Below are positions 4,055-54,561 of a DNA stretch of 64,000 bases, piece after piece. Made by a program: the position numbers and the translations under genes. The DNA comes from a virus: the IMG/VR virus record IMGVR_UViG_3300025788_000001, positions 3,074 to 67,073 of that record; one strand, 5' to 3'. The stretch's first letter is position 1, and each line of letters begins with the position of its first letter. The notes under the pieces are model-generated. The model did not search any database and was not told where the DNA came from. It worked only from the letters and a program-made list of their open reading frames with translations.

Positions 4055-6899
4055 TTATCACCAGCGGCCGTGTAATTCTCATTACATTGACTCGCATCGA
4101 TGGGCCGCGTGTCTTAGCCAGCATGTCTTTGCGCATGTACGCTATCTTGTAATTAGGTAGTGTTTCAAGCTCCTTCTTCAAGTCAGAGTATCCATAACTC
4201 ATAGTAGAGCAGTGTTGTTTAAGCAGTTGCTCCTCAATGAAGTAGTCAACGTGCCCCGGGGTCATATCATGCTCAACCCTTCCAGCCACATCTGACCTAG
4301 TTAGCGACTGGTCAATTTCATTATGCCCCCCTAGCGTTGCTTTCGTAATACCGTCAATAGCTTTAACCACAACGAATTTACCGTAGCACTCACGGGTGTA
4401 GGCGTTAAGAACATCTTCAGCGGAACGGCGGTTGCCTCGTACTGCGGCTCTAGCTTCATTAACCATACCGCGAAGGGTTTCTATAATAGGACGAATAGGT
4501 ACATCAATAATGCCTGCATATTTTTTGCTCATTAGAATCACTATAGCTACGATGGCGGCATTACCAGCAGTCCAATAACGCTCGTCATCTGATGAATTAA
4601 ATTCCGCTTTTAACTTCTCGCGGGTCTCTTCAAAAACCTTAACTGCGGTTTCTCTGTTCCTGACAATCCAACGAATCAATTCACGACCTACGACACCGTA
4701 GTTAGACTTTAGGAGATCAACAGTACTACTCTCTGTTGACGACGCCCATTGAACTTCCTTGGCAGGCTTGACTTCCAGCATACGGAGCATTTCAGCTTGG
4801 GATGTATGCTTGCGCCCACCCGATAAGAAGTCGTAAATATGAGTGTTGCTTGAAAACAACACCATCAAGTTCCATACAGTTGTGTTCAAACGTTCCTTAT
4901 TGGCGCCTTGTTCCATGCGCTCTTTGCCTTTACCTTGGGTTAAATCCAGTAGGAACTGGGGCAACCACTCAAATGACTCCCGATTTTTGTTTGTAATCTC
5001 GTCCATTACAAGCGGGAGGCTGTTTAATAAGCCCTGTCTTTGCTGTGCGGCTACGGCTGAAGTTGATTGCGTGACCCTGTAGAGCTCTGGATGACCCCAA
5101 AAACTAGCTGCAAGGGCTAAGGCAAGCGATTTACCACGACCTGAACCCGAAGATCCGAGGTGATAAACAACGCCTCTAAAGCCTGAGAAATGCATCAGGA
5201 TGGAAGCAGGCCCCACCATACCCATAGTAACAATCTCCCACAGCTCCTTGGCAATGTACATATTGAGTACTTTCTTCCACTCATCCAGCGTGCCCATAGG
5301 TTTAGTAGCGTAGTTAACGTTAGCCATACCAGGGGTCGGGACATATAGTTCCTTGCCATCAGGGGAGAAGATGGTGCTGTCGTAAACAAACGAATTGTCC
5401 TCTTGCCAGCCGCAGCTATGAGGAACCTTGACCGCCACCTTATTAGAACTGGCGTATTCCACACAACCACGGATGTACTCGTATAGGTGGACATCATTGC
5501 CCTTGCCGTAGACTGCGATTATATTGTGGCTAGCTAGCATCTTCACAGTCTCATCCTTACTTACTGCCGATTTTTGAGGCATTATGATATCTGAGGTGTG
5601 GGTAGGGCGGCAAACAATCATATGAATCAAATGCTCATCGCCATTATCTAGGATATCAACCACAAACAAATCGTAAGGCAGGATCATTACCTGCTTCTTG
5701 ACCTTTTCTCCGCCTTCTTCTTCAATTACCTTGTCGATAAAGATGCCCCCATTAGCCCCATAGCTAAATCCGCGGGGTGGAATTGGGCGCACAATCATTA
5801 ACTGCTCGGCAGGTTTGTCTGCTGTAGCCGCCTTGGTTTCTACTATGATTTCCTTGGGCTTATTGTCGACCTTAATTTCACGTCCCAATGCTAGCGGGTT
5901 AGTAATCTTACCGAAGTGTGGGCAACCTTTACATAAACCTGGGTTTGCCTCGTCAAGCTTTAAGCAACTGTAAGGGCCTTTGATTTGGTGCCACTTGGTA
6001 TTGTGTCGATCCATATCGTAGGGGTGCATGGCGGATAGGGCTTGACCTTCTTCCTCGCCATCTTCGCAGTACTTAGCTATGCTGAGGATACCCCGCCACA
6101 AAGGTTCCATGCCGTCATCTTTAGCATGTTCAATGTAATGGTTTATCTGTTTGCATTTGGGCGCCAAAGTTTTAAAGAACGTGATGCTGTTCTCAACTAT
6201 CTTGACGTTTGATGCAGAACCTTTTAAATCTGGACGCTTGCCTGGTAAATCAAATTTAGGTAGCATTTCATGGGAGTCTTCCCCTACTTTTTCCCTGATG
6301 ACCGTAGACAGTTGTGTAAAGTCAAACGTTACACCGACCACCTTGATGGCAACAGACCGCGGCTTTTCCTGCTTATAGTTTTGTGTATCAGGTACACGTA
6401 GTACTCGAGCTGCATCGCCAGTAACCATGGCGTCAATCCGCAGGCCTTCTTTCTTACAAAGGCGCTTGAGATTTTCTGCTACTGGTTTCCATGCGGATAT
6501 ATCTACTTCGTCAAAAAACGGCCAGTATACGTGCAATCCGCCACCACTAGATACGACGTATGGGGTGCCCAACTGGTCTAACGAAGTTGAAGACAAAAAG
6601 CTACCCAATGCTGCTGCTGCTGCCTGCTTATTAGGATAATCCTTTCCTTCACCACAATCAATATCCAAGAATAAAGATTTTATTTTTAATGCGTTTGTGG
6701 CTAATCGCTTGCCACTTGTGTTGAATGATGCTAAGGCGTAGAAAGCGTTTAAACCTTCTCCACTAAAGTGTGTAGCGTTGCTATACAGTTCATCAATCGT
6801 GTCAACAAAGACATGTTCTTTTTTAGCTGTGCTAAGTTCGCAGGCGCAATATTTACCCGAAGACGGAAGCACAGTCGCTAGGAATTCCTGCGACTTCAT
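4041..6899 (-). CDS. Primase-helicase (AEP-like N-terminus, DUF927-like region, P-loop helicase)
   Basis: LDIDCG and SSGGGLHVYW primase motifs, Cys cluster (C..CKGC), Walker A GSSGSGRGKS, Walker B LVMDE. Confidence 0.85.
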   Translation of the reverse strand: MKSQEFLATVLPSSGKYCACELSTAKKEHVFVDTIDELYSNATHFSGEGLNAFYALASFNTSGKRLATNALKIKSLFLDIDCGEGKDYPNKQAAAAALGSFLSSTSLDQLGTPYVVSSGGGLHVYWPFFDEVDISAWKPVAENLKRLCKKEGLRIDAMVTGDAARVLRVPDTQNYKQEKPRSVAIKVVGVTFDFTQLSTVIREKVGEDSHEMLPKFDLPGKRPDLKGSASNVKIVENSITFFKTLAPKCKQINHYIEHAKDDGMEPLWRGILSIAKYCEDGEEEGQALSAMHPYDMDRHNTKWHQIKGPYSCLKLDEANPGLCKGCPHFGKITNPLALGREIKVDNKPKEIIVETKAATADKPAEQLMIVRPIPPRGFSYGANGGIFIDKVIEEEGGEKVKKQVMILPYDLFVVDILDNGDEHLIHMIVCRPTHTSDIIMPQKSAVSKDETVKMLASHNIIAVYGKGNDVHLYEYIRGCVEYASSNKVAVKVPHSCGWQEDNSFVYDSTIFSPDGKELYVPTPGMANVNYATKPMGTLDEWKKVLNMYIAKELWEIVTMGMVGPASILMHFSGFRGVVYHLGSSGSGRGKSLALALAASFWGHPELYRVTQSTSAVAAQQRQGLLNSLPLVMDEITNKNRESFEWLPQFLLDLTQGKGKERMEQGANKERLNTTVWNLMVLFSSNTHIYDFLSGGRKHTSQAEMLRMLEVKPAKEVQWASSTESSTVDLLKSNYGVVGRELIRWIVRNRETAVKVFEETREKLKAEFNSSDDERYWTAGNAAIVAIVILMSKKYAGIIDVPIRPIIETLRGMVNEARAAVRGNRRSAEDVLNAYTRECYGKFVVVKAIDGITKATLGGHNEIDQSLTRSDVAGRVEHDMTPGHVDYFIEEQLLKQHCSTMSYGYSDLKKELETLPNYKIAYMRKDMLAKTRGPSMRVNVMRITRPLVISEED

Positions 6900-6913
6900 A
6901 AATGCTCCTTGGG

Positions 6914-7069
6914 TTAACCGTTAATGCGTTGATTGAATCTTTTTAGTACTTCCTTTTGAAAACTTAACGGCATGCCAGTATCAAGGTAGCGTTCTGCAAA
7001 GCTAATTAGTTCTTTGTCGGTTAAGGCAGTTGGCGATATTGCCGATTCTTTTATTTGTTCTGCTTGCAT
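6914..7069 (-). CDS. Small hypothetical protein (51 aa, not in ORF track)
   Basis: Hand translation MQAEQIKESAISPTALTDKELISFAERYLDTG...; fills the gap in the operon. Confidence 0.55.
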   Translation of the reverse strand: MQAEQIKESAISPTALTDKELISFAERYLDTGMPLSFQKEVLKRFNQRING

Positions 7070-12136: not shown

Positions 12137-12394
12137 TTATTTGATTGAGCCATCTGCCTTCCTTGGGAAACTTCTATTAGCACTAGCACTCTTAGCTTTA
12201 AGATTACTTCGTACCGTCTTACCGCCTTTGCTTAGGGGCTTGGTGTGATCTACATCCTTGCCATCGCCTTTATGCACTACGCCTTCCCTCTCAAGCATAC
12301 GTCTAGCTTTATTGCGTTGGGCGCGTTTCTTCTTAACGGCTTCTGTGCCGTCGTAGTTTAGGTACTCTTGTCGAAAATTACGCTTAGCTACCAT
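12137..12394 (-). CDS. Small HNH-type protein
   Basis: GKDVDHTKPLSKGG..SNL..ANR. Confidence 0.7.
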   Translation of the reverse strand: MVAKRNFRQEYLNYDGTEAVKKKRAQRNKARRMLEREGVVHKGDGKDVDHTKPLSKGGKTVRSNLKAKSASANRSFPRKADGSIK

Positions 12395-12893
12395 TTTTAA
12401 GTCCTTTCTTATTGTGCTCGGCTACTGCCTCACACCAATCAATAAATTCCTCTACAGAGGTATCGTTTCTAAAGCTGTTTACTGCCCTACAAACCATTTG
12501 AATATTATCGGGCGTATACCCTCCGCCTGCAACAATACGATCTATGGACGCATTTGTTTTTGTTATTACGCCTTTTTCTAAAGAGCAGGTCAAGTCTCGC
12601 CCCGTTAGAGCACACTTGTAGTTTTGCTTTTCAAGTCTGTCTAGAATAATCTGCTTAGTTAGTTTGTCTCTTTTTCTACCGCCATAATACAAAAGGCGTG
12701 CGGCATACCTTGACCAATCACCGCTTATATATGCGTATTGATTCTCAGTAGACTGTATACCTGTAATGTATTTCCATTTGCCTTTACATTGTGGAGAACA
12801 AAATTTATGTACGCCCGAACGTGGAGTAAACAAAGTACCACAAACAGCGCATGCTTTTTGTTTAAATGTTTGTGGTGTGTCCCAGCGTGGCAT
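12384..12893 (-). CDS. HNH-like endonuclease with Zn finger
   Basis: CAVC..CSPQC; CALTG..SIDRI..GYTPDNIQMVC..VN. Confidence 0.7.
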   Translation of the reverse strand: MPRWDTPQTFKQKACAVCGTLFTPRSGVHKFCSPQCKGKWKYITGIQSTENQYAYISGDWSRYAARLLYYGGRKRDKLTKQIILDRLEKQNYKCALTGRDLTCSLEKGVITKTNASIDRIVAGGGYTPDNIQMVCRAVNSFRNDTSVEEFIDWCEAVAEHNKKGLKNGS

Positions 12894-12904: not shown

Positions 12905-13573
12905 TTAATAATGTTTGCGGTGAAACTCACAGCTTTTTACAGGACACCACCCACATAGCGGGGTGCTATTTGGATTCCATATGTCATTGTCGTGGCTAGA
13001 GGCGAGCTTGGCAACCCGTTCTCTATACTTATTCCAATGGTAAGGGGCATCTTCTAACAGCATTTTATGCTTAACCGCACTCCCTTTAACTACAAATAGT
13101 AGGGCTGAGTTAACTTGCCGTATGTGGGGGAAGTGAGCAAACACCATCAAAGACATTAGGATTAGCTGATCTCGGTCAGGATACTTGTCGTTGCCTGTCT
13201 TATAGTCAATAACCCAAGCCTTTAAGCCATCGTCATCAATAATAAGTAAGTCAGCAATACCGCGTACCCAAACGTCGTCATCTTTAAAACCGCATGGGGA
13301 GAGGTCAACCCTCAACCCCATCTCATACTCAGCTAACTTGCGTCCTTCTTTTTTAAGTAGGCTATCCAGTACTGGCTTCATGTAGTCATACTCAGGGGGC
13401 AGGGGTGTGCCATCCTTAACGTAAACTTCTGCCGCTTCATGCACTTGCTTACCGTAGATAGTGTGGACAGTATCAGTGAAGGGGTAGTTTTTAAGTACCT
13501 TGACTTCATGAAACCTCCTAGCACAACCTTCGTAATCTTTAAGCCCTGAATGGCTCCACTTAATTGTAGTCAT
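12905..13573 (-). CDS. PD-(D/E)XK exonuclease (Cas4/RecB-like)
   Basis: WSHS..C, GIADL..IDYKTG, QL, C-terminal CGWCPVKSC. Confidence 0.85.
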   Translation of the reverse strand: MTTIKWSHSGLKDYEGCARRFHEVKVLKNYPFTDTVHTIYGKQVHEAAEVYVKDGTPLPPEYDYMKPVLDSLLKKEGRKLAEYEMGLRVDLSPCGFKDDDVWVRGIADLLIIDDDGLKAWVIDYKTGNDKYPDRDQLILMSLMVFAHFPHIRQVNSALLFVVKGSAVKHKMLLEDAPYHWNKYRERVAKLASSHDNDIWNPNSTPLCGWCPVKSCEFHRKHY

Positions 13574-13869
13574 TAGAATTTTGCTGTTCGTATGGCTTGT
13601 TCAAGGCGGTCGGCAAACCCACTAACAAATGTTTCCTTGGCGTTTAGTTTGGACTCACCCATATCGTACAAAATAGCATGAACAATCTCATGCCACAAAG
13701 TATTATGTTGCCGCGATGCCGCCTGCTTAGCAATGGATATAGTGTGGTTACTGTAGTTATATGCACCTCGGCACTCATCCCTACCGACAAACACACTATC
13801 GTATAGCTCTACTTTGATTTTGGTTTTGCCTATTGTTATTACCTTTGGTACTGCAAATCGTTTGGTCAC
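13573..13869 (-). CDS. Small HExxH metallopeptidase-like protein
   Basis: TLWHEIVHAIL..E. Confidence 0.6.
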   Translation of the reverse strand: MTKRFAVPKVITIGKTKIKVELYDSVFVGRDECRGAYNYSNHTISIAKQAASRQHNTLWHEIVHAILYDMGESKLNAKETFVSGFADRLEQAIRTAKF

Positions 13870-15854
13870 TTCGCTTCTCCATATCGTTTGGCACAGCCGG
13901 TCTCAGCGTCAAGAGGGATTCCTGACATGTACTTAGGATCTGCTACCATCTGCGCGTGTACCCAAGTTTCAGCTCCTACGGCTTCTGTCTCGGGAACTAG
14001 TACTACAACTTCATCATGCACAGTTAGTACACACGGATACCTCTTTTGTATCCGTAGCATCCCATCCGTCATGACACATCGTGCTACTGCTTGCACAATA
14101 TTTTCTACTATTTTACCACCATACAGCTTCTTAGGCTTGTTCTTATCATCCCCACCATACTGCCATTGGATTCTACCCTTGTTGTCAGCTACTCCTTCAA
14201 GGTTTGGGTATCTTAAAGATAGCCCACTAGGTAGCTCAATGCTCTCCTTGGCAAACTTAATGCACTTGTAAGGATGTTCTTTACCCCTAGATAAGCAAGT
14301 CAAAATAGCATCGCTACATAGTTGCCAAAAAGCAACAACTGGTTGGGCTTTACTTCTATAGATGTCGATGATCTTCTTGGCAGATACGCAATGAATCAAT
14401 AGCTCGTCCTCCGTACAAGTATGAGGTATAGCCCGCATCTTTTCTAAGTTATTATCCCACCCAATAAAGTCTTGCATGTCTTGGCCAGTAACACCGAGTT
14501 GTTTAGCAAACGCTTTATCGTACATCGTAGGGGGTGCACCTAGAAAGCCCGTCAATAATTGAGCCGCAAAGCTAGCCCAACCCATGCCATAGCCACATCC
14601 TAAGAGAGCTGACTTCGCTGATTGGCGGAGATCCGCATGGTCTTTTTTATTGAGACCGGCAATACCGAACATCTGTGCTCCGAACGCCGCATATGCGTCT
14701 TGCCCTGACGCAAAGATTTCAAGAAGATTTTGATAGTCGGCGAGGTACGCAAGTACACGCGGTTCAATCTGCGATAGGTCGCAAACAACGAGAGTGTAAC
14801 CTCTCGGCGCTTGAATACTTTTGCGTAAAAAAGACCCCCGCTTGAGGTTCTGCAGATTAAGCCCCGAACCCTTGCTCGCTGACCAACGACCGGTGTGGGC
14901 GCCGTAATAATTGAGCGGGACAGGTAGCGTACCTCGTTCTGATATATCCACGAACCTTTGCGCTCGCGTTCTTTCAAGTGTCGACTTAACTTTAAGCCTC
15001 GCTTCACAAATAAGCGATACGTCTTCGTTGTTTGAATTAAGCAGTGCTTGGAAGAGGGCATCCGTTTTAGCGAAAGCGAAAGCTTCTTTACCAGTCGTCT
15101 TGCTAATTTTTGTTGGGGGGGATACCCCAAGTGCCCTAAGGACTTCAGCAAACTGATCGTTACTAGCCAACGCCGTTTCATCAACGTTAACTTTTTTAAG
15201 GATCGCTTCGCGCTTGGTACGCTCATCAATAATGGCTTCATTCAACATCTCCTTATCAAGTTCAAGGACGGGGTCAATAAACATTTTTAGTGTGAGGTCG
15301 ATAAGCTTTAGCTCACCTTTTGGATAGCCACCCGTGATTTCCTCGTTTAAGCTATTAAATATTGCTTCGCACAAGAACACATCATGAAGACAATAAGTCG
15401 CTAGCTCTTCCTCTATGTTTAGCGGTAGTTCCTCCAAGCCGTCGGTAGAGTAGACTGCTTGCCCTTTTGGTGGGAGCTCGTAGTATTCTGCGAGTTTGGC
15501 GAGGCTATTTCCGACCTCAACGCCCCTAAGAGCACGAGCCATAGATAGAGAATCAAAAATAAAAATAGGATGCGCGCCGTAAACCCATGACAAAATCGCC
15601 ACATCAAACTGGGCATTGTGCGCAAGCACCGCCGTCCGACTCCAATCAACTGACTCGACCCATTGAGGGAGGTTCTCATGCGTAACCCAATGCGACTTGT
15701 CATCGCCATACTCTTTCCAACCAATTCCAAATGCTTTAAATTTATCATCACGAATGTACTCCTCCGTTGTCATCTTAGATAGGGTGTAGTCTGACCTATC
15801 CCATCTTGTCTCAAAGTCCACGACCAGTAGTCGGTCAAATGGTTTGTTTGCCAT
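13866..15854 (-). CDS. polA: Family A DNA polymerase with 3'-5' exonuclease
   Basis: DFET and HNAQFD exonuclease motifs; DLSQIEPR (A), RQSAKSALLGCGYG (B), TVHDE (C). Confidence 0.92.
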   Translation of the reverse strand: MANKPFDRLLVVDFETRWDRSDYTLSKMTTEEYIRDDKFKAFGIGWKEYGDDKSHWVTHENLPQWVESVDWSRTAVLAHNAQFDVAILSWVYGAHPIFIFDSLSMARALRGVEVGNSLAKLAEYYELPPKGQAVYSTDGLEELPLNIEEELATYCLHDVFLCEAIFNSLNEEITGGYPKGELKLIDLTLKMFIDPVLELDKEMLNEAIIDERTKREAILKKVNVDETALASNDQFAEVLRALGVSPPTKISKTTGKEAFAFAKTDALFQALLNSNNEDVSLICEARLKVKSTLERTRAQRFVDISERGTLPVPLNYYGAHTGRWSASKGSGLNLQNLKRGSFLRKSIQAPRGYTLVVCDLSQIEPRVLAYLADYQNLLEIFASGQDAYAAFGAQMFGIAGLNKKDHADLRQSAKSALLGCGYGMGWASFAAQLLTGFLGAPPTMYDKAFAKQLGVTGQDMQDFIGWDNNLEKMRAIPHTCTEDELLIHCVSAKKIIDIYRSKAQPVVAFWQLCSDAILTCLSRGKEHPYKCIKFAKESIELPSGLSLRYPNLEGVADNKGRIQWQYGGDDKNKPKKLYGGKIVENIVQAVARCVMTDGMLRIQKRYPCVLTVHDEVVVLVPETEAVGAETWVHAQMVADPKYMSGIPLDAETGCAKRYGEAK

Positions 15855-15862
15855 TGGGTTCC

Positions 15863-16066
15863 TTAGTTAAATATAAATACACCAAATAGGGTGGCTACAA
15901 GCACACCCACATATACTACTGAAACCGTTTTGCGTCTTTTAATTTCTTTAATGTTTCCTATAAGGGCTGTTTGTAGAATCTCCATATCCCCATCAATCGG
16001 TGGTCGCCGATCAGGGCGGTAGTTAATACCCATTTTTATTTTGCCGTTATCGTAAGGAACATTCAT
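15863..16066 (-). CDS. Small protein with C-terminal TM helix
   Basis: 67 aa with a hydrophobic C-terminus. Confidence 0.6.
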   Translation of the reverse strand: MNVPYDNGKIKMGINYRPDRRPPIDGDMEILQTALIGNIKEIKRRKTVSVVYVGVLVATLFGVFIFN

Positions 16067-16236
16067 ACATGCCCTCCAGTAACCAGACTTGGGGCACTTC
16101 TAAACGTTTTTAAATCGCGTTCTCGTGGGTGGATTGTTGGTTTGTAGATGACCGTAGTATTTACAGTTCTTGGTTGTGCCCATTTGATTGGGTCGGATTT
16201 ATCTTCTTCGATTACTCTTTTTGGTTTACTACTCAT
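16063..16236 (-). CDS. Small hypothetical protein (57 aa, not in ORF track)
   Basis: MSSKPKRVIEEDKSDPIKW...; its stop overlaps the next start. Confidence 0.5.
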   Translation of the reverse strand: MSSKPKRVIEEDKSDPIKWAQPRTVNTTVIYKPTIHPRERDLKTFRSAPSLVTGGHV

Positions 16237-16245
16237 TTGTTTTCC

Positions 16246-16473
16246 CTAGTTTAATGTTCGGTTATCCATGTGTTGCTTTACATAGAACCCAGTTGTTACA
16301 GCCGCATCATTCAGTAGCTCAGGAACTTCCCATTCTTCGATGTTAATTCCATAAATCTTAACTACCTGAGACTCGTAGTCGTAGCCTACAACAATGGCAC
16401 AGGAATTCTTTTCCTCGTCCACGCAGTCGTTCAGTATATCTTGTACTGCTTTGTAGGTTTCATTAGCTTCCAT
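16246..16473 (-). CDS. Hypothetical protein
   Basis: ORF within the operon. Confidence 0.6.
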   Translation of the reverse strand: MEANETYKAVQDILNDCVDEEKNSCAIVVGYDYESQVVKIYGINIEEWEVPELLNDAAVTTGFYVKQHMDNRTLN

Positions 16474-16771
16474 GTCGATCCTTTAGTTCTTGCAAAGTGT
16501 CAGTAACATCATAAATGTTATCTTCATTTACGACCATTGTTACTCCGCCAGCCTTTCGTATTAACGCCATTTGCGCTTCTTGGAGAGGAGTAGGTTTGTT
16601 ATTGCCCGCCTTACACTCGATGCCAATAAACAAACCAAGGTAACAAGCCACAATATCAGGTACACCACTACGCCCAAAACCTCCAGTAACAGGGTAGAAA
16701 TAATACGCCCCATAAGAGTTAAGTACATTGACCACCTTCTTCTTGACCTTGGCTTCGGGTGTCATGCTCAT
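16463..16771 (-). CDS. VRR-NUC domain nuclease (putative resolvase)
   Basis: E..V, GVPDIV, FIGIECK..KPTPLQ. Confidence 0.85.
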   Translation of the reverse strand: MSMTPEAKVKKKVVNVLNSYGAYYFYPVTGGFGRSGVPDIVACYLGLFIGIECKAGNNKPTPLQEAQMALIRKAGGVTMVVNEDNIYDVTDTLQELKDRHGS

Positions 16772-16965
16772 TGTAGTTCCGCATTGCGTCTCCTAACTTC
16801 GTCGATCCGTTGTAAACAAGCTACTATCTGAAAGCGTTGTTTATCTAGCATCTGAAAATCGCCGACAGCTTCCGCCTTAAGTGCAAGAATAACCTCAGCC
16901 TCTAAATTACATAACGCCGCATTTTCCCTGACTATCTTTAGTACTTCCAACTCACTTAACTGCAT
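16768..16965 (-). CDS. Hypothetical protein
   Basis: ORF with coupled overlaps. Confidence 0.5.
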   Translation of the reverse strand: MQLSELEVLKIVRENAALCNLEAEVILALKAEAVGDFQMLDKQRFQIVACLQRIDEVRRRNAELQ

Positions 16966-17245
16966 TGCGTAGCTCCTTCATAAATTCCCTTCCTTTATCA
17001 GTTAGCGCATGATACACGCTTCTTTTGTCGTCAGATTCGTTGTACTTGTGCATAAGCTTTTTAGCTATGGCGGAATTGACGTGGTATTGGGCAGTGGTAG
17101 ATACCATCGCCCCTTGCTTATTAACTAAAGCTAGAAGCCGAGTAGTTGTTATAGGCTCAGTCTTTTCCACCAAACCAATAACATACTCCTCGCCCCAAGA
17201 CACGCCAACCTCATCTCTAATATGTTGGGTGGCAAATATAGTCAT
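16952..17245 (-). CDS. MarR-like winged-helix protein
   Basis: DDKRSVYHALTDKGRE wing motif. Confidence 0.6.
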   Translation of the reverse strand: MTIFATQHIRDEVGVSWGEEYVIGLVEKTEPITTTRLLALVNKQGAMVSTTAQYHVNSAIAKKLMHKYNESDDKRSVYHALTDKGREFMKELRNAVK

Positions 17246-17823: not shown

Positions 17824-17886
17824 AACTTTTCCTTTGTTTGTAATACTTCTGTAATTTTACTACAAATTTTAACTGTTGTTTTTTAA

Positions 17887-20732: not shown

Positions 20733-20979
20733 AGTTGTTTTCCTTTTGGTTTTGGCTTGCTTGAATTTGCTTGATGACCGTAGATAAAGCCTGTAGTTGG
20801 GCGCATATAGTGTTAATGATCTTCGTCACTTCGTACGCTTGGGGGCTTGTATCTACAAAGCTATACTGCGCACCCGTTGCCCCTTGTATGGTTTCGGATT
20901 TATAGTGCGAGTAGTGCTCGGGCTTTCTCTCTAGTCCTTTGTGCATAGCTTCTCTATCCTCCGTTGTAAATGTTGTCAT
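20722..20979 (-). CDS. Hypothetical protein
   Basis: MTTFTTEDR start; coupled to neighbours. Confidence 0.55.
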   Translation of the reverse strand: MTTFTTEDREAMHKGLERKPEHYSHYKSETIQGATGAQYSFVDTSPQAYEVTKIINTICAQLQALSTVIKQIQASQNQKENNCGK

Positions 20980-21698: not shown

Positions 21699-22465
21699 AC
21701 AACCTCCTTAATTGCATTAACATATTTGTTAACAGTCGAACCCTCTAGACCGCACGCAGTATTTACTTCTAACACATAGCACTTATCCTGTGCCTCATTC
21801 CATGCAACATCTACTGCACCGAAGTCTAGCCCTAACGCATCAACGGCAGAGATAGCAACCCCCCTAAGAGAGTGAGGTTCTTCGATACCACCTCGACAAA
21901 AGACATACCCATTTGCATGGTTTCTAATATAAGGGTGGTGGTCATCAACACTAGAACTCCTACGCTTTTCTTGTATGTCAAGAATTTTACTATTAAATAC
22001 ATGAACTCTGAACTCCTTTTGCTTGCGTATGTATTTTGTATACAACGGGGCATCTACTAACTCTGAGTGTTGTTTGGCTACAACAATGCCTTGCCCTGAG
22101 TGTGCGGTGAGTAGCGTACGACATACTACCTTGAAGCCCTGTTCTATCCAGTCCTTTGCCTTGTCCTTGTCTGTTGTGTATTCAGGGTGGGGGACATCGG
22201 CTAGCTTAAAATGCAGTAACGACCTGTGTTTGTTTGACGCAACGCTGACGGCACTAGCGGAGTTGATGACCGTAGCATTTGTATCACTAATCCCACTACT
22301 ACCCCAGTTAATAACGACACGACTAGGCTTGCACAAGCCGACACGCTCAGGGTTTATAAACAACACATCTCTACCTAATGCTTCGCTCAGTCCTTTCTTT
22401 AATAGCCTTGCACTTTTACTGCCTCGTTTGTATGGGGCTATGGCTACCCTTGATGTGTTTGTCAT
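21695..22465 (-). CDS. ATP-grasp (RimK-like) ligase
   Basis: ASNK, HSGQGI, EFRVHV, LDFGAVD, VLEVNTACG. Confidence 0.85.
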   Translation of the reverse strand: MTNTSRVAIAPYKRGSKSARLLKKGLSEALGRDVLFINPERVGLCKPSRVVINWGSSGISDTNATVINSASAVSVASNKHRSLLHFKLADVPHPEYTTDKDKAKDWIEQGFKVVCRTLLTAHSGQGIVVAKQHSELVDAPLYTKYIRKQKEFRVHVFNSKILDIQEKRRSSSVDDHHPYIRNHANGYVFCRGGIEEPHSLRGVAISAVDALGLDFGAVDVAWNEAQDKCYVLEVNTACGLEGSTVNKYVNAIKEVV

Positions 22466-22958: not shown

Positions 22959-22978
22959 ACTTTATTTTCCTTTCGTTG

Positions 22979-24216: not shown

Positions 24217-25692
24217 TTACACTTCAGCTAATTGTTCTTTCTTCTCGAAACGTGGGTTAGCTTTAACGATTGCTGATTTATCTAGCATGAATCCCTTAGA
24301 CTGCAAGAATGACCGTAGATTGATTGTGTCCTTGCGGTTGTCAGGCTGGCAAATAAACTTGAGGAAGTTATCCGTAGTTAAGTCTTGTTGCCCTGTATCA
24401 CGACTAAAGAACCAAGCCATGTAAGTAAACTCAAGACAAGACATGATGGTCTCATAGCGTAGCGTGCCCTTAAACAAGCGGAACTCAATAGTTCTCTCGG
24501 GCTGGAAGTTAACCGACTCATACCGATCCTCATTCAAGCGTTGCATACCATTACGCTTGCCGTGCTTGAGCCATGCATAGTCGGCTGTCTTGTTCTTAAC
24601 CTGTGAATAGCGGTTGCCATCTCGTCTTGCTATGGTACGAAAGAGTCGCTGGTTTCTACTATCGTGCATGAACAGGATTAACTTTGCCGCATGAAACATA
24701 CTCATACCCTTCTTGCAAATGTGAACATGAAGCCCACAAGTCTTGGTATCGTGCGACTTAACATCAGCCCATCTACGCTTAAAGAACTCTAACTGCTTGG
24801 CATGAACATCTAACCCTGTGTAGCCAGTCACCATCTCAAAGCCGTGGCTAAGAGACCCATCGTCTTCTAAGAAACAATAGTTGTGCCCTTCAGGCGTAAC
24901 ACCGATAGCCTCGAACAACTCCTCAGCCTTAGCCTCTCGGTCGCAACCATCGCCGACCTCCATCTCAAGCTCAAGCCCCATGTAGATCTTAGTCTCTCGC
25001 TTGGAGAACTCAGTTGGGATAAGACCTAGCTTACGCTTACTACTATGATAACCCCCGATGAAGCGGCTTTCTTCTTCCTCCTCCTCATCGTCTTCGATGT
25101 CAGGCTCTTCATCATCTTCATGCACCACGCTATCATGGTAGTCTGACCAACGATAGCTATTCTCCCTACAACTAGAGCACACCCATCTGTCGCCGTTATA
25201 CACCCAAGAGCCATCGTCTTCTGCTTCTATGTACTCGCAGTCAGAGCAAACCTCATATGTAGGTGCGTCGGGGAATTTATCCGAATCGTTAATCATTTCG
25301 CACCAATCGCTACTACCTGCCATATCCCTAATGTCAGGGTTGTCATTAAGCATACAAACTAACTCACTATCGTCTTGAGTTCTAAAACACTCCCTAGCCC
25401 TCACTCCGAAGTCGTATAGAGCACGCTTGCGAGTCATAAGCGAGACATAACTTGTTACTGAAAACCGATTGAGTCGGTTGCCGTGCCATTGTTGTGTTAC
25501 TAAGAGGTTGTTCTTGATAGTGTGCCTACTATGATCTACTGCTTCCGCCATAGTCCATGCGTGTGGTCTTTCCATGTGATTCAACTTCATGCTGAGGAAT
25601 GTCCGCAACACGTCATGCTTACCATCGGGCAGGCTTGCTTTGCGAAGACGGACTGCTTCTACCTGTGCAACTGTATATGTAACTGTTGGCAT
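24217..25692 (-). CDS. Putative amidoligase (COOH-NH2 ligase) with Zn ribbon
   Basis: GLELEME, EDDGSL, GFEMV, CGLHVH, RY.SVN, TIEFRLF; CSDC..CSSC. Confidence 0.85.
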   Translation of the reverse strand: MPTVTYTVAQVEAVRLRKASLPDGKHDVLRTFLSMKLNHMERPHAWTMAEAVDHSRHTIKNNLLVTQQWHGNRLNRFSVTSYVSLMTRKRALYDFGVRARECFRTQDDSELVCMLNDNPDIRDMAGSSDWCEMINDSDKFPDAPTYEVCSDCEYIEAEDDGSWVYNGDRWVCSSCRENSYRWSDYHDSVVHEDDEEPDIEDDEEEEEESRFIGGYHSSKRKLGLIPTEFSKRETKIYMGLELEMEVGDGCDREAKAEELFEAIGVTPEGHNYCFLEDDGSLSHGFEMVTGYTGLDVHAKQLEFFKRRWADVKSHDTKTCGLHVHICKKGMSMFHAAKLILFMHDSRNQRLFRTIARRDGNRYSQVKNKTADYAWLKHGKRNGMQRLNEDRYESVNFQPERTIEFRLFKGTLRYETIMSCLEFTYMAWFFSRDTGQQDLTTDNFLKFICQPDNRKDTINLRSFLQSKGFMLDKSAIVKANPRFEKKEQLAEV

Positions 25693-25847
25693 AACTGTAT
25701 TTCCTTTCGTTTGTGTAATAACTGATGACCGAAGTCATTGGACAGAAACCTGTCCCAATCTATTTAATAATCAAACCTACTACATACCTAACTACCTGCG
25801 CCCCTATGAATAAACTACAAAACAACAGGGCGATCCTGCTATACAAA

Positions 25848-26557: not shown

Positions 26558-27160
26558 TTACTTAGCGGACAGGTTTCTGCCCGTATCGTATTCATTTAAC
26601 TTCTCTACTCTCCTTTCTTTCATCAATCTATATTGCGTTTCTAAAACCGCCAAGTGGTCTAGGCGTGCTTGTTTGATTTGGGCTATTTGCTCGGGTGTAT
26701 CTGCTTTTGTTTGCCGAGTCGTTTTTATGGGACAGGTTTCTGTCCGTCTGAAGTAGGCGTGGTATCTGTTCTTAGCTAGGTTTACTTCTTTATCTAGGGT
26801 GGTTTTTAGTGCTTCTCGTTCCTTACCCTTTTCCTTTTGCCACCTTTCTTTCATCACTCGCTTTCGCATATCGTTGATGTCCTTTCTTTTTTGGTGTATT
26901 AGTTGTTCCCCTAGGTAGGGGTTGATGCGTTTATTTGTTATCTTGTTGCGTAGTTCTTTGAGGGTGAGCTTAGCCCTCGGTTTGCGTTTGGGTTGGCATT
27001 GTTTGCACAAAGAGCTGATGACCGTAGTTCCTGTTTCAACCCGCCTGTTTAGGGCGTTTGAATATTCTTCTGCAGTCATGCGTCTTTTAAACTCAGCTCG
27101 CTCTCTTGTTTCCCCGCATTTCGCACAAGTTAGTTGTGCTTGCTTGGTTAGTTTTTTCAT
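26558..27160 (-). CDS. Basic Zn-ribbon protein
   Basis: CAKC..CKQC; K/R-rich. Confidence 0.65.
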   Translation of the reverse strand: MKKLTKQAQLTCAKCGETRERAEFKRRMTAEEYSNALNRRVETGTTVISSLCKQCQPKRKPRAKLTLKELRNKITNKRINPYLGEQLIHQKRKDINDMRKRVMKERWQKEKGKEREALKTTLDKEVNLAKNRYHAYFRRTETCPIKTTRQTKADTPEQIAQIKQARLDHLAVLETQYRLMKERRVEKLNEYDTGRNLSAK

Positions 27161-41476: not shown

Positions 41477-41862
41477 TGGCTAAAAATGGATATGACCAAA
41501 CCTACGAAGATGACCGTAGGGAGAATAAAGAAACAGCGGATTTGCTCCCCCGTGCTGGTCGCGCTATAGTAAAGATGGCAAAAACTAAAGCACCCGAAGG
41601 GTCTACACCTACACCAGAAAGCCCAGCTCCTGGTATGAAAAAAGGCGGAAAAGTTATGGAAAAAGAATCTAAGTCAGAAGAGCGCGTGGAAGAGTCGAAA
41701 GACAAAAAGCAAGATGTCGCCATGATTAAGAAAGCGTTTAAAGAGCATGATGCTCAAGAACATAAAGGCGGTAAGGGAACTAAAATCTCCCTTAAAGCTG
41801 GCGGTAAAGTAAGAGGTTGTGGTATCGCTCAACGTGGTTTAACTAAAGGAAAAGTATTATGA
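41476..41862 (+). CDS. Small basic protein with KxGG motifs
   Basis: MKKGGKV, LKAGGKVRGCGIAQRG. Confidence 0.6.
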   Translation: MAKNGYDQTYEDDRRENKETADLLPRAGRAIVKMAKTKAPEGSTPTPESPAPGMKKGGKVMEKESKSEERVEESKDKKQDVAMIKKAFKEHDAQEHKGGKGTKISLKAGGKVRGCGIAQRGLTKGKVL

Positions 41863-44086: not shown

Positions 44087-45070
44087 ATGAACTATGTTCA
44101 GCTTTATCAGGCAATACAAGACTACGCAGAGAATACTGAGTCGCTATTTGTAAATAACATTCCTCGCTTTGTGCAGGAGGCCGAAGACCGTGTGTATAAT
44201 TCGGTTCAAATTCCGTCTTTGCGTAAGAATGTTACTGGTACGCTGACTTCTGGTAATCAATATTTATCGGCTCCAAACGACTATTTATCTACGTACTCCT
44301 TAGCTGTTATTGACTCAAGTGGTAACTACAAGTATTTACTTAATAAAGACGTTAACTTTTTGCGAGAAGCATACCCAGGCGTTGCTTCTAATGGTACTAC
44401 CTATCAGGGTACACCAGGCGGGGTTCCTAAGTATTATGCGTTATTTGGGTCACAATATAGTAGTGCTAATGAACTAAGTTTTATCATGGCACCAACGCCA
44501 GATAGCAACTACACAGCTGAACTGCACTATTACTACTACCCAGTCTCTATTGTTCAGGGTGCGTTGCCTATTAATTCACCAAATAATGCTGTACCAGCCG
44601 GTTCTATTACTACTACTGGTTCTGGCTACACAAACGGTTTTTATGCAAATATTCCATTGACTGCTAACACAGGTTCAGGTTCTGGGGCTACGGCTAACAT
44701 TACAGTGTCTGGCAACGTAGTCACTTCTGTGGCTATCACTAATGGCGGTAATTTTTATTCCGTTGGCGATACCTTGACTTGTTCTGGTAGCTACCTTGGC
44801 AATACTAACGCCACTCCTTTTGTCTATACTATATCCTTGGTCAATAACTCAACTGGTGAAAGCTGGCTTGGAGATAACTACGACCCCGTATTGTTCTACG
44901 GCTCGTTAAGAGAAGCAGCAATCTTTATGAAAGCTGAAGCGGATATGGTTGGTTATTACGAAACTAAATACCAAGAAGCCGTTGCGCAAGTTAAACGCCT
45001 TGGCGATGGTTTAGAAAGGAACGACAGTTTTAGGAAAGGGCAGACCAGTCTGCCTTATAATCAGCTATGA
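44087..45070 (+). CDS. Head-tail connector/adaptor with inserted beta domain
   Basis: MNY..L..AIQDY.E..PKYY..PTPD..YGSL.EA..FMK. Confidence 0.65.
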   Translation: MNYVQLYQAIQDYAENTESLFVNNIPRFVQEAEDRVYNSVQIPSLRKNVTGTLTSGNQYLSAPNDYLSTYSLAVIDSSGNYKYLLNKDVNFLREAYPGVASNGTTYQGTPGGVPKYYALFGSQYSSANELSFIMAPTPDSNYTAELHYYYYPVSIVQGALPINSPNNAVPAGSITTTGSGYTNGFYANIPLTANTGSGSGATANITVSGNVVTSVAITNGGNFYSVGDTLTCSGSYLGNTNATPFVYTISLVNNSTGESWLGDNYDPVLFYGSLREAAIFMKAEADMVGYYETKYQEAVAQVKRLGDGLERNDSFRKGQTSLPYNQL

Positions 45071-45675
45071 TAAAAACTTGCTGTACTTGTAAAATAGCTA
45101 AAGAAATATCAGAATTTCATTCTGGGGCTAGACGCTGTAAACCTTGCGCTATTATTGCAGCTAAAGAAAGCTACACTAAAAATAAAATTAAAATAAGTTT
45201 AGAAGCTAAAAATCCAACAAAAAAAGAATACACTAACGCCCTACGTAGGGCAAGATACGCAAAAAATTCTACCAATATACTTGCACGTAATAAAGCTTGG
45301 AAAAATAATAACCCAGAAAAAACGTCTTTATCGGTTAGTAATTGGCAAAAGAAAAACCCGAAAAAATGTTCTGCAAATACAAAAAAATGGGCGCAAGCAA
45401 ATAAAGGTATTGTAAATGCAAGAACTCGAATGTACCAATTAGCTAAGTTAAACCGTACTCCAGCATGGCTTACAGATATTGACCGTGAACGTATTCAAAA
45501 TGAGTATAAACTAGCTGAAATTCTTAGAAAAGTAACAAATCAGCAATGGCATGTTGACCATATAATCCCGCTTCAAGGTAAAATAGTGTCTGGGCTACAT
45601 GTACCATCTAATTTACAAGTAGTTGTAGCCAAAGAAAACATAGCTAAAAGCAATAAATTTGAGGTTACTTTATGA
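45067..45675 (+). CDS. HNH endonuclease
   Basis: CCTC..CKPC; TPAWL..HVDHIIPLQG..GLHVPSNLQ..N..KSNK. Confidence 0.85.
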   Translation: MIKTCCTCKIAKEISEFHSGARRCKPCAIIAAKESYTKNKIKISLEAKNPTKKEYTNALRRARYAKNSTNILARNKAWKNNNPEKTSLSVSNWQKKNPKKCSANTKKWAQANKGIVNARTRMYQLAKLNRTPAWLTDIDRERIQNEYKLAEILRKVTNQQWHVDHIIPLQGKIVSGLHVPSNLQVVVAKENIAKSNKFEVTL

Positions 45676-50776: not shown

Positions 50777-52384
50777 ATGTCAAGTACATACTCAACTTCA
50801 CTGCTCTTAGAGCTTATCGGTAACGGAGATCAATCCGGTACTTGGGGGTCTACAACCAACAATAACCTAGGCAACTTGATTGAACAGGCTATTACTGGGG
50901 TACAAACCGTTAACTTTGCAACTGACGCAAACCGCACCCTAACTAACTTTAACGGAGCGCTGGATGAGGCACGTAATGCTGTTCTTGTAATCACTACATC
51001 CGTTTCATTAACTGGCACCCGCCAAGTTGTAGCCCCGCTGGTAAATAAACAATATGTGGTCTATAACAATACAGGATACACAATTACCTTTGGGGGTACT
51101 TCTGGTGGTGTAGTTACTATTCCAAACGGCATGGTTACTGCGGTTTATTGCGATAGCACAAACTTTGTTGCCGGTATTAACGGTGTTCCAGGAAACTGGA
51201 CGGTAAACGGTAACTCTACAATTAACGGCAACGAAACAGTAAAAGGCAATATTGCAGCTAGCTCTGCTGTTTTTGTGGGTTCTATTTCAGGCACAACCCT
51301 TACTGTTACTTCTGTTACCTCGGGAACTATCGCTACTGGCCAGTATCTTAATGGTTTGGGTGTAACTCCTGGAACAACAATTTCTAGTGGTAGCGGAAGC
51401 AGCTGGGTTATAACCCCATCCCAAACTGTATCTAGTACAACAATTACTGCAAATGGTATTGTTAATGCTGGCGCTTTTGTTGGTGACGGTACATACTTAA
51501 CTGGTACAGCTCCTAACTTAAACATTGGCGGAAACGCAGCAACTGCAACTTTTGCCACTTCTGCCGGAACTACTTCTAACTTTACTGGTGTTGCTAACCC
51601 ACCAAGCGGCGGTACTGGTTTAACCAGCGTGCCTTTAAACTACTTGGTTTCTGGTAATACTACTTACCCATTTAATACTGTTGCTCCTGGTACAGCCGGT
51701 AACGTTCCACTTTCTACAACGTATGGCGCGGCTACTTTTGTGGCTGGTATTGCTGCAGGTACGATGACCGTAGCTTCTATTTCTTCTGGCACATTAACTG
51801 AAGGCGCTACTATTGCCGGTACTGGAGTTACAGGCGGCACAACAATTAACCAGCTAACTTCTGCTGGCTCAGCAGCTGCAACAAAAACATACGTAAGCGG
51901 CGGTGCAGTTGGAGCAAATACAATTACGCTAAACTCAGTTACATCAGTAGTAGTTGGCCAATTAGTTATTGGTACAGGCGTTCCTAACAGTACGTTTGTT
52001 CAGTCTATTTTTGGTTCACAAATTACTTTATCTAAAAACCTAACTGTCCAAGCTGCTGGTACATATAACTTCTACACACCGGGCGGTGTAGGTACTTACC
52101 AAACAACCCCAACCCAAACTGTATCATCTGGAACAACTATTACTGCTACAAATGGCACATACTTTACTAGCCAGCCATTAAACTGGGATAACGTAGCAGG
52201 TAAACCAACTAACATAAGTTACTGGACAAATGATTCGCATTATATGAATGAAGCTACTGGAGGTGGTAGTGCGTATGGAAACGCAAACCCAGCCGTTACA
52301 AGTGTATACTTGTCCAGGTCCGGTATTACAGCTGTTTTATCTGTTGGCACACAATGCAACTGTAACTGCGCCTGCGACTGCTAA
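50777..52384 (+). CDS. Tail fibre/spike protein with C-terminal CNCNCACDC
   Basis: LELI..G.QSGTWG.TTN.NL N-terminus, T/G-rich domains, Cys-rich terminus at 52355-52381. Confidence 0.75.
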   Translation: MSSTYSTSLLLELIGNGDQSGTWGSTTNNNLGNLIEQAITGVQTVNFATDANRTLTNFNGALDEARNAVLVITTSVSLTGTRQVVAPLVNKQYVVYNNTGYTITFGGTSGGVVTIPNGMVTAVYCDSTNFVAGINGVPGNWTVNGNSTINGNETVKGNIAASSAVFVGSISGTTLTVTSVTSGTIATGQYLNGLGVTPGTTISSGSGSSWVITPSQTVSSTTITANGIVNAGAFVGDGTYLTGTAPNLNIGGNAATATFATSAGTTSNFTGVANPPSGGTGLTSVPLNYLVSGNTTYPFNTVAPGTAGNVPLSTTYGAATFVAGIAAGTMTVASISSGTLTEGATIAGTGVTGGTTINQLTSAGSAAATKTYVSGGAVGANTITLNSVTSVVVGQLVIGTGVPNSTFVQSIFGSQITLSKNLTVQAAGTYNFYTPGGVGTYQTTPTQTVSSGTTITATNGTYFTSQPLNWDNVAGKPTNISYWTNDSHYMNEATGGGSAYGNANPAVTSVYLSRSGITAVLSVGTQCNCNCACDC

Positions 52385-52393: not shown

Positions 52394-53149
52394 ATGAACT
52401 TATATACGCTACAAAATACTAATCCTATATCAGTTTCCGCTGTTGATGTAACTCGTGCTGATAATACTATTACGTTTGCGGTTACAACAACAAACACTGC
52501 TGATAAAAACCCAAGAGTAGATACTTTTACGTTAGACTATAATTTGTTATCAGCCCGTTCAGATTTTGACGATAGCACACAATGGATTATCGGGTATAAC
52601 CCAGAATATGCACCCCAAGGTGGCGGCCCTCTATTTATTATCTACAACACCTTTAAAGAAACATTCCCAACTAAAGGAAAAAGTGGTACTTTTACAGCAA
52701 GACGTGACGGCGTAAATATTATTTTTTCTTTGTATGTGCCGTTTAAAAATTCGTCATTAGATGAATGTTCTTTACTAGTAGTTAGTGAAGACATCACAAA
52801 GATAACAGCGGATTCATCTTTCTCCGCCCCAATCGTGGTAACTGATAGACTTAGCATTCGCCCTTTAGTAATGCCTTCTGTTCGCGCTGTATCTGTTACA
52901 CCTATTGGCCAAGATTTAGATGTCGTGCTCCAATTGTGTAAAAATGGGCAAGATATAAGTAATATTGCAACCCTTTACATTTCATGTGATACTGGCTCTT
53001 TGTCTTCTTCAGTTATTAAAACAAATGGTAATGGGCAGGCAACCCTGCGTATCTATGGTGACCCACACCGTGCCGGAGAAGCTGGTGTATTAAACGTTGG
53101 CTTCAAGTATTGGAGCGGCGAGCTTTACGTAAATTACATAGCCCCTTAA
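52394..53149 (+). CDS. Hypothetical protein, possible Ig-like C-terminus; candidate rSAM partner
   Basis: Lies between the Cys-tailed fibre and the rSAM gene; KTNGNGQATL resembles Big-type Ig domains. Confidence 0.55.
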   Translation: MNLYTLQNTNPISVSAVDVTRADNTITFAVTTTNTADKNPRVDTFTLDYNLLSARSDFDDSTQWIIGYNPEYAPQGGGPLFIIYNTFKETFPTKGKSGTFTARRDGVNIIFSLYVPFKNSSLDECSLLVVSEDITKITADSSFSAPIVVTDRLSIRPLVMPSVRAVSVTPIGQDLDVVLQLCKNGQDISNIATLYISCDTGSLSSSVIKTNGNGQATLRIYGDPHRAGEAGVLNVGFKYWSGELYVNYIAP

Positions 53150-53172
53150 AAGAAATTACAAAAAACCACATC

Positions 53173-54561
53173 ATGGCTAAATTTAAATTAGATTGTCTTG
53201 ACGCCCTTAAACCAGAAAAAAGAAAAACATTTTTGTATGACAATGCAACTTCGGAACTTCTAAATGAAGACGGCACTCCTTTTGACTTTGGTTTTATTGT
53301 TGTTGACCCAAAAAAATATAAAGATATAGCAACACCGAATAAAGATAATCCTATTGGAAAAAGCCGTAGACTAAAGCGACTTAAGATTCAGCTTGGTCTT
53401 TCTTGTAATTACGAGTGCTCATATTGTAGCCAGCGGTTTGTACCTAGGGCTGATGAAACTAACCCAGATGATATTGAACCATTTTTAACCCAGCTTCCTA
53501 CATGGTTTGATGGTGGAGAAGATGGCGATGGTAGCGGTGTACGTATAGAGTTTTGGGGCGGTGAACCTTTTGTATACTGGAAAACTTTTAAGCCTTTAGC
53601 TGAGCGCATTCGTCAGATGTACCCTAAAGCAGAATTTTTGGTTATAACTAATGGCTCTTTACTTGATCTAGAAAAAAATCAATGGGTAGATGACTTAGGT
53701 TTTATGGTAGGTATATCCCATGATGGTCCGGGATACCATGTTCGTGGTGAAGACCCGTTTGATAATCCCAAACAGTTTGCTGCTATTAAAGATTTATTTG
53801 ACCGTTTATACCCTAAAAACCGTATAAGTTTTAATGCCACATTAAATAAAGATAACCAAAGCCGTACCGCTATTGGCGAGTTTTTTGAACAACGTTTAGG
53901 GATTATGCCTGTTATTGGGGAAGGTAGCTTTGTTGACCCATATGATGAAGGGGGCGCAGCTTCTTGTTTTGATGACCCTGCTGATTTTTTATCCTATAGA
54001 AACAAGTACTTAGCTGAATTGCGAGACGGTGGGGTCCATAACTTTACTACAATTGCTAGTAAAATTACAGATTTTAAAGACTCTATTATTAATAACCGTC
54101 CAGCTTCTGCATTAGGGCAAAAGTGCTCTATGGATAAACGAGACCAACTAGCCGTAGATTTACATGGAAATGTGCTTACTTGTCAAAATGTATCGTCTGT
54201 AGCCATAAGTTCAAACGGTGAAAGCCATAAAATTGGGCACGTATCTGATTATGCTAATATCAAGCTTAATACAGTTACCCATTGGTCACATCGTAAAGAA
54301 TGCCCTAATTGCCCTGTGTTACAAATGTGCCAAGGTAGCTGTATGTTTTTACACGATAAGTTATGGGAATTAGGTTGTGATACGGCTTTTTCTGACAACG
54401 TTCCTTTATTTGCCGCGGCTATTGAAGCTATGACTGGGTATATTCCGTATTACATTGATGGTCCACAAAGAGATGACCGTAAAGATATATTTGGACTGGT
54501 GCACGGCATTCCAGAGCGTAAAGCTAAAAAGCCTTTTCCTATCCCTGTAGTATCAGCTTAA
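53173..54561 (+). CDS. Radical SAM enzyme with SPASM domain
   Basis: CNYECSYC, FWGGEP, ITNG, ISHDG; SPASM C..DLHGNVLTC..CPNCPVLQMCQGSC..C. Likely start MAKF at 53173. Confidence 0.9.
   Translation: MAKFKLDCLDALKPEKRKTFLYDNATSELLNEDGTPFDFGFIVVDPKKYKDIATPNKDNPIGKSRRLKRLKIQLGLSCNYECSYCSQRFVPRADETNPDDIEPFLTQLPTWFDGGEDGDGSGVRIEFWGGEPFVYWKTFKPLAERIRQMYPKAEFLVITNGSLLDLEKNQWVDDLGFMVGISHDGPGYHVRGEDPFDNPKQFAAIKDLFDRLYPKNRISFNATLNKDNQSRTAIGEFFEQRLGIMPVIGEGSFVDPYDEGGAASCFDDPADFLSYRNKYLAELRDGGVHNFTTIASKITDFKDSIINNRPASALGQKCSMDKRDQLAVDLHGNVLTCQNVSSVAISSNGESHKIGHVSDYANIKLNTVTHWSHRKECPNCPVLQMCQGSCMFLHDKLWELGCDTAFSDNVPLFAAAIEAMTGYIPYYIDGPQRDDRKDIFGLVHGIPERKAKKPFPIPVVSA

Follow-up and report, generated by a model that had tools for sequence, protein, structure and literature searches.

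Phage T5 has been known since the 1960s to carry site-specific nicks confined to a single strand of its DNA, and such nicks were later found in the phiKMV-like phages and in phage tf. Host genomes carry strand-polar signals of another kind, the over-represented Chi- and KOPS-type motifs of 5–8 nucleotides (nt), which occur in thousands of copies and are read by a translocating enzyme. Here we describe an 11-nt word, GATGACCGTAG, that recurs on a single strand in the genome of an uncultured freshwater phage, IMG/VR record IMGVR_UViG_3300025788_000001 (67,073 bp with a 127-bp terminal overlap). The stretch analysed, hereafter the window, comprises 64,000 nt corresponding to positions 3074–67073 of that record, and all positions given below count from its first letter unless stated otherwise. 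The evidence supports the word being a strand-polar signal under selection at the level of the DNA, and not a by-product of coding or transcription; it may mark sites at which packaged DNA is nicked.

In Pseudomonas putida phage tf, 14 nicks have been mapped, all of them on the top strand at TACT/RTGMC (PMC3517423). All 17 one-substitution variants of that word lie on the same strand, 11 of the 14 nicks fall in one half of the genome, and putative sites are found at similar positions in PaP3, LUZ24 and phiMR299-2, in which the main word differs by one base; the tf paper explicitly suggests that nickase and sites co-evolve (PMC3517423). For the phiKMV-like phages the nick consensus is 5'-CGACNNNNNCCTA/CTCCGG-3' (cited in PMC3517423 and the Andromeda preprint), while the major and minor nicks of T5 have the consensus 5'-R/GCGCRGG-3' as quoted in PMC3517423. 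The function of such phage nicks, for T5 a puzzle of decades, is described as unknown in PMC3517423, PMC8545432 and the Andromeda preprint, and in these papers the enzymes that make them are unknown too.

The genome studied here is organised into two divergent arms, a minus arm at 3.9–28.8 kb and a plus arm at 28.8–64 kb that continues into the start of the record. A reading made from the window's letters alone (the sequence-only reading) had counted seven exact and three one-mismatch copies of GATGACCGTAG on the plus strand without a reverse-complement copy, and an exact recount gave the same figures for the window, with zero copies on the minus strand. Across the whole 67,073-bp record there were 10 forward and 0 reverse copies at up to one mismatch, the first 3 kb adding none. 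From base composition, 0.012 exact copies of the word are expected, and GATGACCGTAG is the top-ranked 11-mer of the genome by enrichment; dinucleotide shuffles (n = 100) gave a mean of 0.40 matches and a maximum of 2, compared with the 10 observed. Given that 96% of the window is coding, we also performed 300 codon-preserving shuffles, which keep every protein and the codon usage of each gene, a check for enrichment and strand bias that the sequence-only reading had proposed. On the plus strand these yielded on average 0.13 exact and 1.46 one-mismatch copies, with a largest total of 5, so that none of the 300 reached 10 copies. The highest count attained by any 11-mer in these shuffles was likewise 5, compared with 7 for the observed word, so that the enrichment stands even though the word was picked post hoc. 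Comparable counts on the minus strand or a lack of enrichment over shuffles, the outcomes named beforehand as speaking against a polar signal, were thus not what we found (10:0, against a shuffle maximum of 5). As a control, the same scan of Vibrio phage ICP2 returned a top word enriched 53-fold, compared with 569-fold in this phage.

The one-sidedness extends to parts of the word, with GACCGTA found 9:0, ACCGTAG 12:0 and TGACCGT 12:0 on the two strands. The flanks of the sites are unrelated (mean pairwise identity 0.26), recurrent variation is confined to word positions 1, 9 and 11, and the words of the family described below are 11–12 nt long with little degeneracy. The sites are unevenly distributed: 7 of the 10 lie in the minus arm, five of those seven within 20773–27027, and the spacing ranges from 1.3 to 14.5 kb. 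When the 10 sites were folded as DNA no shared hairpin emerged, eight of them having |z| < 1.5 and the two with z of about −2.4 folding differently from each other. This does not fit a structured single-stranded signal such as an N4-type hairpin promoter and suggests that the plain duplex sequence is what is read.

The plus strand is the template strand in the minus arm, where it carries seven sites, and the coding strand in the plus arm, where it carries three. Nine of the 10 sites are intragenic and lie at varied distances from gene starts, the exception being the intergenic site at 25724. Site-by-site translation confirmed the reading frames assigned earlier: five minus-arm sites read xCT ACG GTC ATC ([S/T/A]TVI) and one reads LRSF, while two of the plus-arm sites read DDR and one MTV (Table 1). 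In distant relatives, the codons orthologous to sites 6297, 24308 and 27017 specify unrelated residues (AEHL, NAIL, LRDY, YTAT and others), so it is the DNA word that imposes the peptide and not the reverse; the frame preference in the minus arm probably marks the reading in which a protein can best tolerate the word. Since one DNA strand is kept across both arms, neither transcription nor peptide accounts for the word. A promoter, pause, terminator or ops-like transcription signal would be expected to hold a fixed orientation to transcription and to sit at gene boundaries, and the sites do neither. The use of three reading frames, the differing orthologous peptides and the codon-preserving shuffles likewise do not fit a repeated peptide or coding repeat, in line with the earlier statement that protein sequence does not explain the sites.

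To examine the word beyond this genome, we identified 373 relatives in IMG/VR through their DNA polymerase, a large freshwater clade, and compared 80 loci drawn from these together with ten long records (G001–G010), all oriented alike, with the window genome designated G000. At up to one mismatch, plus-to-minus counts were 10:0 in G000, 9:0 in G001, 7:0 in G002 and 5:0 in G009; 5:2 in G003, 5:1 in G007, 3:2 in G008 and 3:1 in G010; and 1:0 in G006 and 0:0 in both G004 and G005. The conservation check that had been proposed thus found the same strand used across the 11 genomes, with 54 sites split 48:6. Grouped by nucleotide orthology, these form 29 classes split 26:3 (binomial p = 1.5e-5), although the number of independent events is somewhat lower than 29 because some classes are distant orthologues. 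In the 17 loci with polymerases at least 85% identical (242 kb), the expected strand carried 27 exact and 17 one-mismatch copies, and the other strand 0 and 1, respectively.

Most sites in the close clade are inherited, the word being exact within flanks that are 65–84% identical. Turnover also occurs and respects the polarity, as lineage-specific sites are present at window positions ~15896, ~41677 and ~58278. The first of these is a copy of GATGACCGTAC about 250 nt from site 16147, found in several relatives that lack the latter (G002, L014 and L032); the second is a copy of GATGACCGTAA in G002, 168 nt from site 41509; and the third is common to G001, G002 and G003 and absent from G000. The T9A variant GATGACCGAAG recurs 9:0 across the family in distinct contexts. 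Third-codon positions were conserved in 60 of 77 cases inside the word (0.78) and 704 of 1099 in the flanks (0.64), a moderate excess obtained from short-query alignments that missed several relatives.

Some sister lineages carry a different word on the same strand. G005 lacks GATGACCGTAG but has GATGAGTGTAG, in which two central bases differ, at 4:0 on the plus strand with unrelated flanks. One of these copies lies exactly at the position orthologous to site 20773, an anchor at which G003 has GATGACCGTAG and both G007 and G010 have GATGACCGAAG, while the small protein around it is only 35–68% identical (over the aligned part) among G003, G005, G007 and G010. In G004 (3:0) and G006 (5:0) the polar word is a 12-mer of unrelated sequence, TGACACTGGTTG, which has no plus-strand match in the other nine genomes (G005 has one minus-strand match) and is found 15:0 over the 80 loci. 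Orthologous copies of TGACACTGGTTG in G004 and G006 are exact, whereas the surrounding proteins are merely 39–56% identical. One TGACACTGGTTG copy, inside the primase gene, is about 73 nt away from the place of site 6297, and another is about 56 nt from the orthologue of site 20773; by a rough estimate (ten sites, ±100 nt, 67 kb) each such coincidence would have a chance of about 3%. The rule across the family is apparently a lineage-specific word, placed on the strand opposite the polymerase gene, at partly fixed places. That the word changes while strand and positions are partly kept points to a reader whose specificity evolves with its sites.

A separate repeat of about 45 nt with the core GATGGGTGTAG occurs in four plus-strand copies at 11214, 18436, 19398 and 19745, in or near a hypervariable block of small open reading frames (ORFs). 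Its core is one mismatch from the G005 polar word and has GATG...GTAG in common with GATGACCGTAG; relatives have one copy each.

Table 1. Copies of the polar word and other features of the window (positions within the window; gene strands in brackets).
Feature	Positions	Strand	Context and peptide read	Occurrence in relatives
Exact GATGACCGTAG	6297..6307	+	in primase/helicase gene 4041-6899 (-), STVI	exact in 7 relatives of the clade with DNA polymerase identity of at least 85%; flank identity 80-94%
Exact GATGACCGTAG	16147..16157	+	in 57-aa ORF 16063-16236 (-), TTVI	gone by indel or substitution in G002, L032, L014, L030, L029
Exact GATGACCGTAG	20773..20783	+	in ORF 20722-20979 (-), STVI	anchor site common to distant relatives
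Exact GATGACCGTAG	22265..22275	+	in RimK-like ATP-grasp gene 21695-22465 (-), ATVI	present in G001, L010, L015, L016; orthologous codons of G002 and G009 without the word (CRIL)
One-mismatch AATGACCGTAG	24308..24318	+	in amidoligase-like gene 24217-25692 (-), LRSF	same variant in G001, G002, G009, L010, L015, L016, L032; flanks 75-97% identical
One-mismatch GATGACCGAAG	25724..25734	+	intergenic, 32 nt upstream of the start of 24217-25692 (-); overlaps only a doubtful 53-aa ORF (+)	
Exact GATGACCGTAG	27017..27027	+	in 200-aa ORF 26558-27160 (-), TTVI	kept in G001, G002, G009, L010, L015, L016, L029
Exact GATGACCGTAG	41509..41519	+	in ORF 41476-41862 (+), DDR	also in G001
Exact GATGACCGTAG	51763..51773	+	in structural-arm ORF 50777-52384 (+), MTV	specific to the window genome; aligned orthologous codons only in G006 (TLTVS, without the motif)
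One-mismatch GATGACCGTAA	54472..54482	+	in radical-SAM gene 53110-54561 (+), DDR	
ATP-grasp/amidoligase block	21695-25692	-	RimK-like ATP-grasp gene 21695-22465, 393-aa partner, amidoligase-like gene 24217-25692	
Radical-SAM gene	53110-54561	+		no homologue in G001-G010
Giant virion protein	1-3879, from record start	+	LPD38 'large polyvalent protein' domain	homologues of 2616-3077 aa

We tentatively favour the reading that GATGACCGTAG is recognised by a sequence- and strand-specific DNA-processing activity encoded by the phage, most likely a nickase that introduces nicks into packaged DNA, a possibility that we place a little short of an even chance and that draws on analogy with the phages introduced above. 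A protein would read the word on duplex DNA and cut the plus strand in or near it, the nicks would be present as localized single-strand interruptions in the plus strand of mature virion DNA, as in T5, phiKMV and tf, and the specificity of the enzyme would co-evolve with the sites. At the level of the sequence, what would be expected of nick sites is found here, namely a word that is restricted to one strand together with its near-variants, a word, polarity and approximate positions that are common to relatives with drift, and an uneven distribution. The sequence-only reading had likewise proposed programmed nick sites, possibly cut by one of the HNH proteins; the polar DNA-level signal and its tf-like signature have held up, while an HNH protein is at most a weak candidate for the cutter. 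The packaging, ejection or Chi-like roles that it named as alternatives seem less likely than nicking. The four HNH/endonuclease VII genes of the window (12384-12893, 35061-35540, 38633-38983 and 45067-45675) are sporadic among motif-bearing genomes, which speaks against them as the nickase. The only nuclease-like gene present in all 11 genomes encodes an 85-aa mini-HNH protein (12137-12394), whose identity is 71–98% where the genome has a GATGA-type word but 40% in G004/G006, has no useful match among solved structures, and is a weak candidate for the nickase.

Several observations weigh against the nicking interpretation. The mini-HNH protein is without an evident recognition domain, and a homologue is found in Vibrio phage ICP2 (and others), yet ICP2 has no comparable polar word. 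Covariation of genes with motifs across the 11 genomes and the loci singled out no nickase, and the excess of conserved third-codon positions is modest in size. Clades at 73–79% identity retain, in the exonuclease gene 12905-13573 at window position ~13066, a copy that lies on the other, coding strand and is exact in G003, G007 and G010 and has one mismatch in G008; this copy corresponds to the opposite-strand excess (18 exact and 8 one-mismatch copies) in the 76–79% polymerase band. The close clade has lost it, G000 having four mismatches there. The contig ends of relatives do not accumulate at sites beyond chance: of about 24 ends, 3 came as close as 100 nt to a site, each time at 6297, where about 2 would be expected by estimate. 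Nor did mosaic boundaries between G000 and G001 coincide with the sites (mean left/right identity difference 0.050 compared with a null of 0.041, P = 0.29, with seven sites testable); only site 27017 reached the 95th percentile, at a sharp identity boundary of 0.85 versus 1.00.

Assembled contigs do not preserve the strand ends of molecules. In those of four public runs, aligned over 15000–29000, breaks track differences between strains and are uninformative on nicking. In the divergent intergenic region at 28076–29000, the summed contig depth approximately doubles in two of the four runs and rises more weakly in the other two, and several alternative joints are seen. Strain variation or a terminal repeat may account for this, contig depth not being equivalent to copy number.

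A broader possibility, which we consider unlikely, is a diversifying strand-marking system in this family of freshwater phages. Each lineage would use its own word of 11–12 nt, GATGACCGTAG, GATGAGTGTAG or TGACACTGGTTG, on the same strand and in partly conserved places of the genome, and a co-evolving phage enzyme would use the marks as programmed entry points, for example for nick-primed unidirectional strand-displacement replication or for ordered ejection or packaging. Specificity would in that case change in jumps, as it does in restriction-modification systems.

It is also rather unlikely that the word is bound by a sequence-specific but non-cutting protein, for instance a regulator or an organiser of packaging or ejection. 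The candidate here is a MarR-like winged-helix gene (16952-17245, minus strand) that follows GATGACCGTAG, being present in 8 of 8 genomes with this word and in none of G004, G005 and G006 (hidden Markov model search, E < 10). Among the loci, 12 of 13 of the A type (GATGACCGTAG) carry the gene, and four of six of the C type (TGACACTGGTTG) are without it. In the neighbourhood of the MarR-like gene's place, G004 and G005 have instead a small zinc-ribbon ORF resembling NrdR and Ogr/Delta (L099:16926-17144, L102:3479-3655). The association rests, however, on approximately two independent lineage losses and has exceptions, as the L079 stretch has three sites and no MarR-like gene and 26 loci have the gene with 0–1 sites, so the link is only a lead. 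The usual target of a MarR-type dimer is palindromic, which this asymmetric word is not, and intragenic sites with genome-wide polarity are not expected of a promoter-bound regulator. Three further genes (13573-13869, which is SprT-like with an HExxH motif, 16768-16965 and 26558-27160) were set aside as nickase candidates: G004 and G006 are the only genomes that lack them, which amounts to a single lineage event.

Improbable, too, is a polar replication signal without a standing nick, for example a place at which the primase-helicase (4041-6899) preferentially starts or is loaded, on the strand that would always serve as lagging-strand template during unidirectional or rolling-circle replication. 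A polarity that spans the genome independently of transcription fits a process moving in a fixed direction along the whole molecule, the sites are densest in the replication/early arm, and a primase/helicase, a helicase, a DNA polymerase A and an exonuclease are all phage-encoded. Spacings of 1.3 to 14.5 kb are nonetheless poorly suited to regular priming, and the T7 and T4 primases recognise only 3–5 nt. Moreover, the divergence of the primase/helicase does not follow motif type, its identity being 58–65% in all distant genomes, and the sites have no common single-stranded fold of the kind seen in single-strand initiation signals.

We regard as more doubtful still a Chi-like signal, by which a host or phage helicase-nuclease entering from one DNA end would be kept from degrading a concatemer tail or an entering genome, with the different words reflecting different hosts. 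Chi signals are polar, over-represented and one-stranded, lineage-specific words could follow host switches, and a PD-(D/E)XK exonuclease and a helicase are among the phage's own proteins; but Chi words are 5–8 nt long compared with 11–12 nt and little degeneracy here, and different words at nearly the same genome positions would not be expected of a signal that works anywhere. Finally, a non-functional origin as a chance repeat, shared peptide or remnant of a small repeat element is very improbable, for while the word was chosen post hoc, five of the six minus-arm sites within genes share one reading frame (xTVI) and close-clade sites are mostly inherited, the shuffle maximum for any 11-mer, the unrelated flanks, the spread over both arms and three frames, the 26:3 split of orthology classes, the independent polar words in sister lineages and the weak top word of ICP2 all stand against it.

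The genes around the sites are arranged by arm. The minus arm encodes the primase/helicase, a helicase, the PD-(D/E)XK exonuclease, DNA polymerase A, small early ORFs, the ATP-grasp protein and the amidoligase; the plus arm encodes the large terminase subunit, portal, major capsid protein, tail and ejection proteins, the radical-SAM protein, an endolysin and the giant LPD38 'polyvalent' virion protein. No tRNA genes were found in the genome. The closest cultured DNA polymerases, those of Rhizobium RHph_TM and the Pseudomonas KPP25/phiR18 phages, are at most about 32% identical, and a nucleotide search of a phage collection returned no close cultured relative. The stretch is present in 24 public freshwater metagenome runs, in all cases as assembled contigs. 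A GroES-like query against genome contigs matched three metagenome-bin contigs, one each from Crocinitomicaceae and Microbacteriaceae and one unclassified.

The small early genes of the minus arm have repeated sequences at their starts. Read on the minus strand, these gene-start cassettes consist of GAAAGGCACA followed by (A/G)GAGAAATGA, in seven copies between 11096 and 20276, two of which differ by 1–2 bases, and an N-terminal word, CCAGTAGCGTGG, occurs in four copies between 11296 and 19495. From 18.1 to 20.5 kb, the contigs of public runs are joined in many alternative ways. The cassettes look like boundary sequences for gene-cassette shuffling.

What is new here is the occurrence of a tf-like signature in an abundant freshwater clade, together with natural switches of the word between sister lineages in which position is retained. 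If the nicking interpretation is correct, these natural specificity switches would make the old question of nick function more tractable, as they offer a comparative route by which to find the reader or nickase through gene-motif covariation and to ask which positions matter. Such signals can, moreover, be detected in metagenomes directly from the assembled letters.

Compared with Chi and KOPS, the words described here are longer (11–12 nt), belong to particular phage lineages and keep their positions. T5 resembles this phage in that its interruptions are programmed, lie on one strand and have fixed positions, but in T5 the consensus can be found on the un-nicked strand as well and additional determinants are therefore needed, whereas here the other strand is without the word. 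The phiKMV-like phages share the use of one strand (there called non-coding), a small number of sites per genome and conservation within the group; they differ in having four sites, a longer bipartite consensus, genes all on one strand and a T7-like organisation with their own RNA polymerase. The word itself is unrelated in sequence to that of tf (11 nt compared with 9), as is the phage, with its 67-kb genome; in most cases the sites here occupy the template strand of early-arm genes, and in one sister clade the word has been exchanged for an entirely different one. The nicks of tf are proven, while the sites here are known from sequence alone. Nevertheless, both phages restrict a short asymmetric word to a single strand (tf has 14 sites, this phage 10) with near-variants on the same strand, and both have two oppositely transcribed arms, an uneven distribution with most sites in one part of the genome, similar positions in relatives, and drift of the consensus. 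The predicted sites described here thus match the signature of the tf nick sites on every point that a sequence comparison can address.

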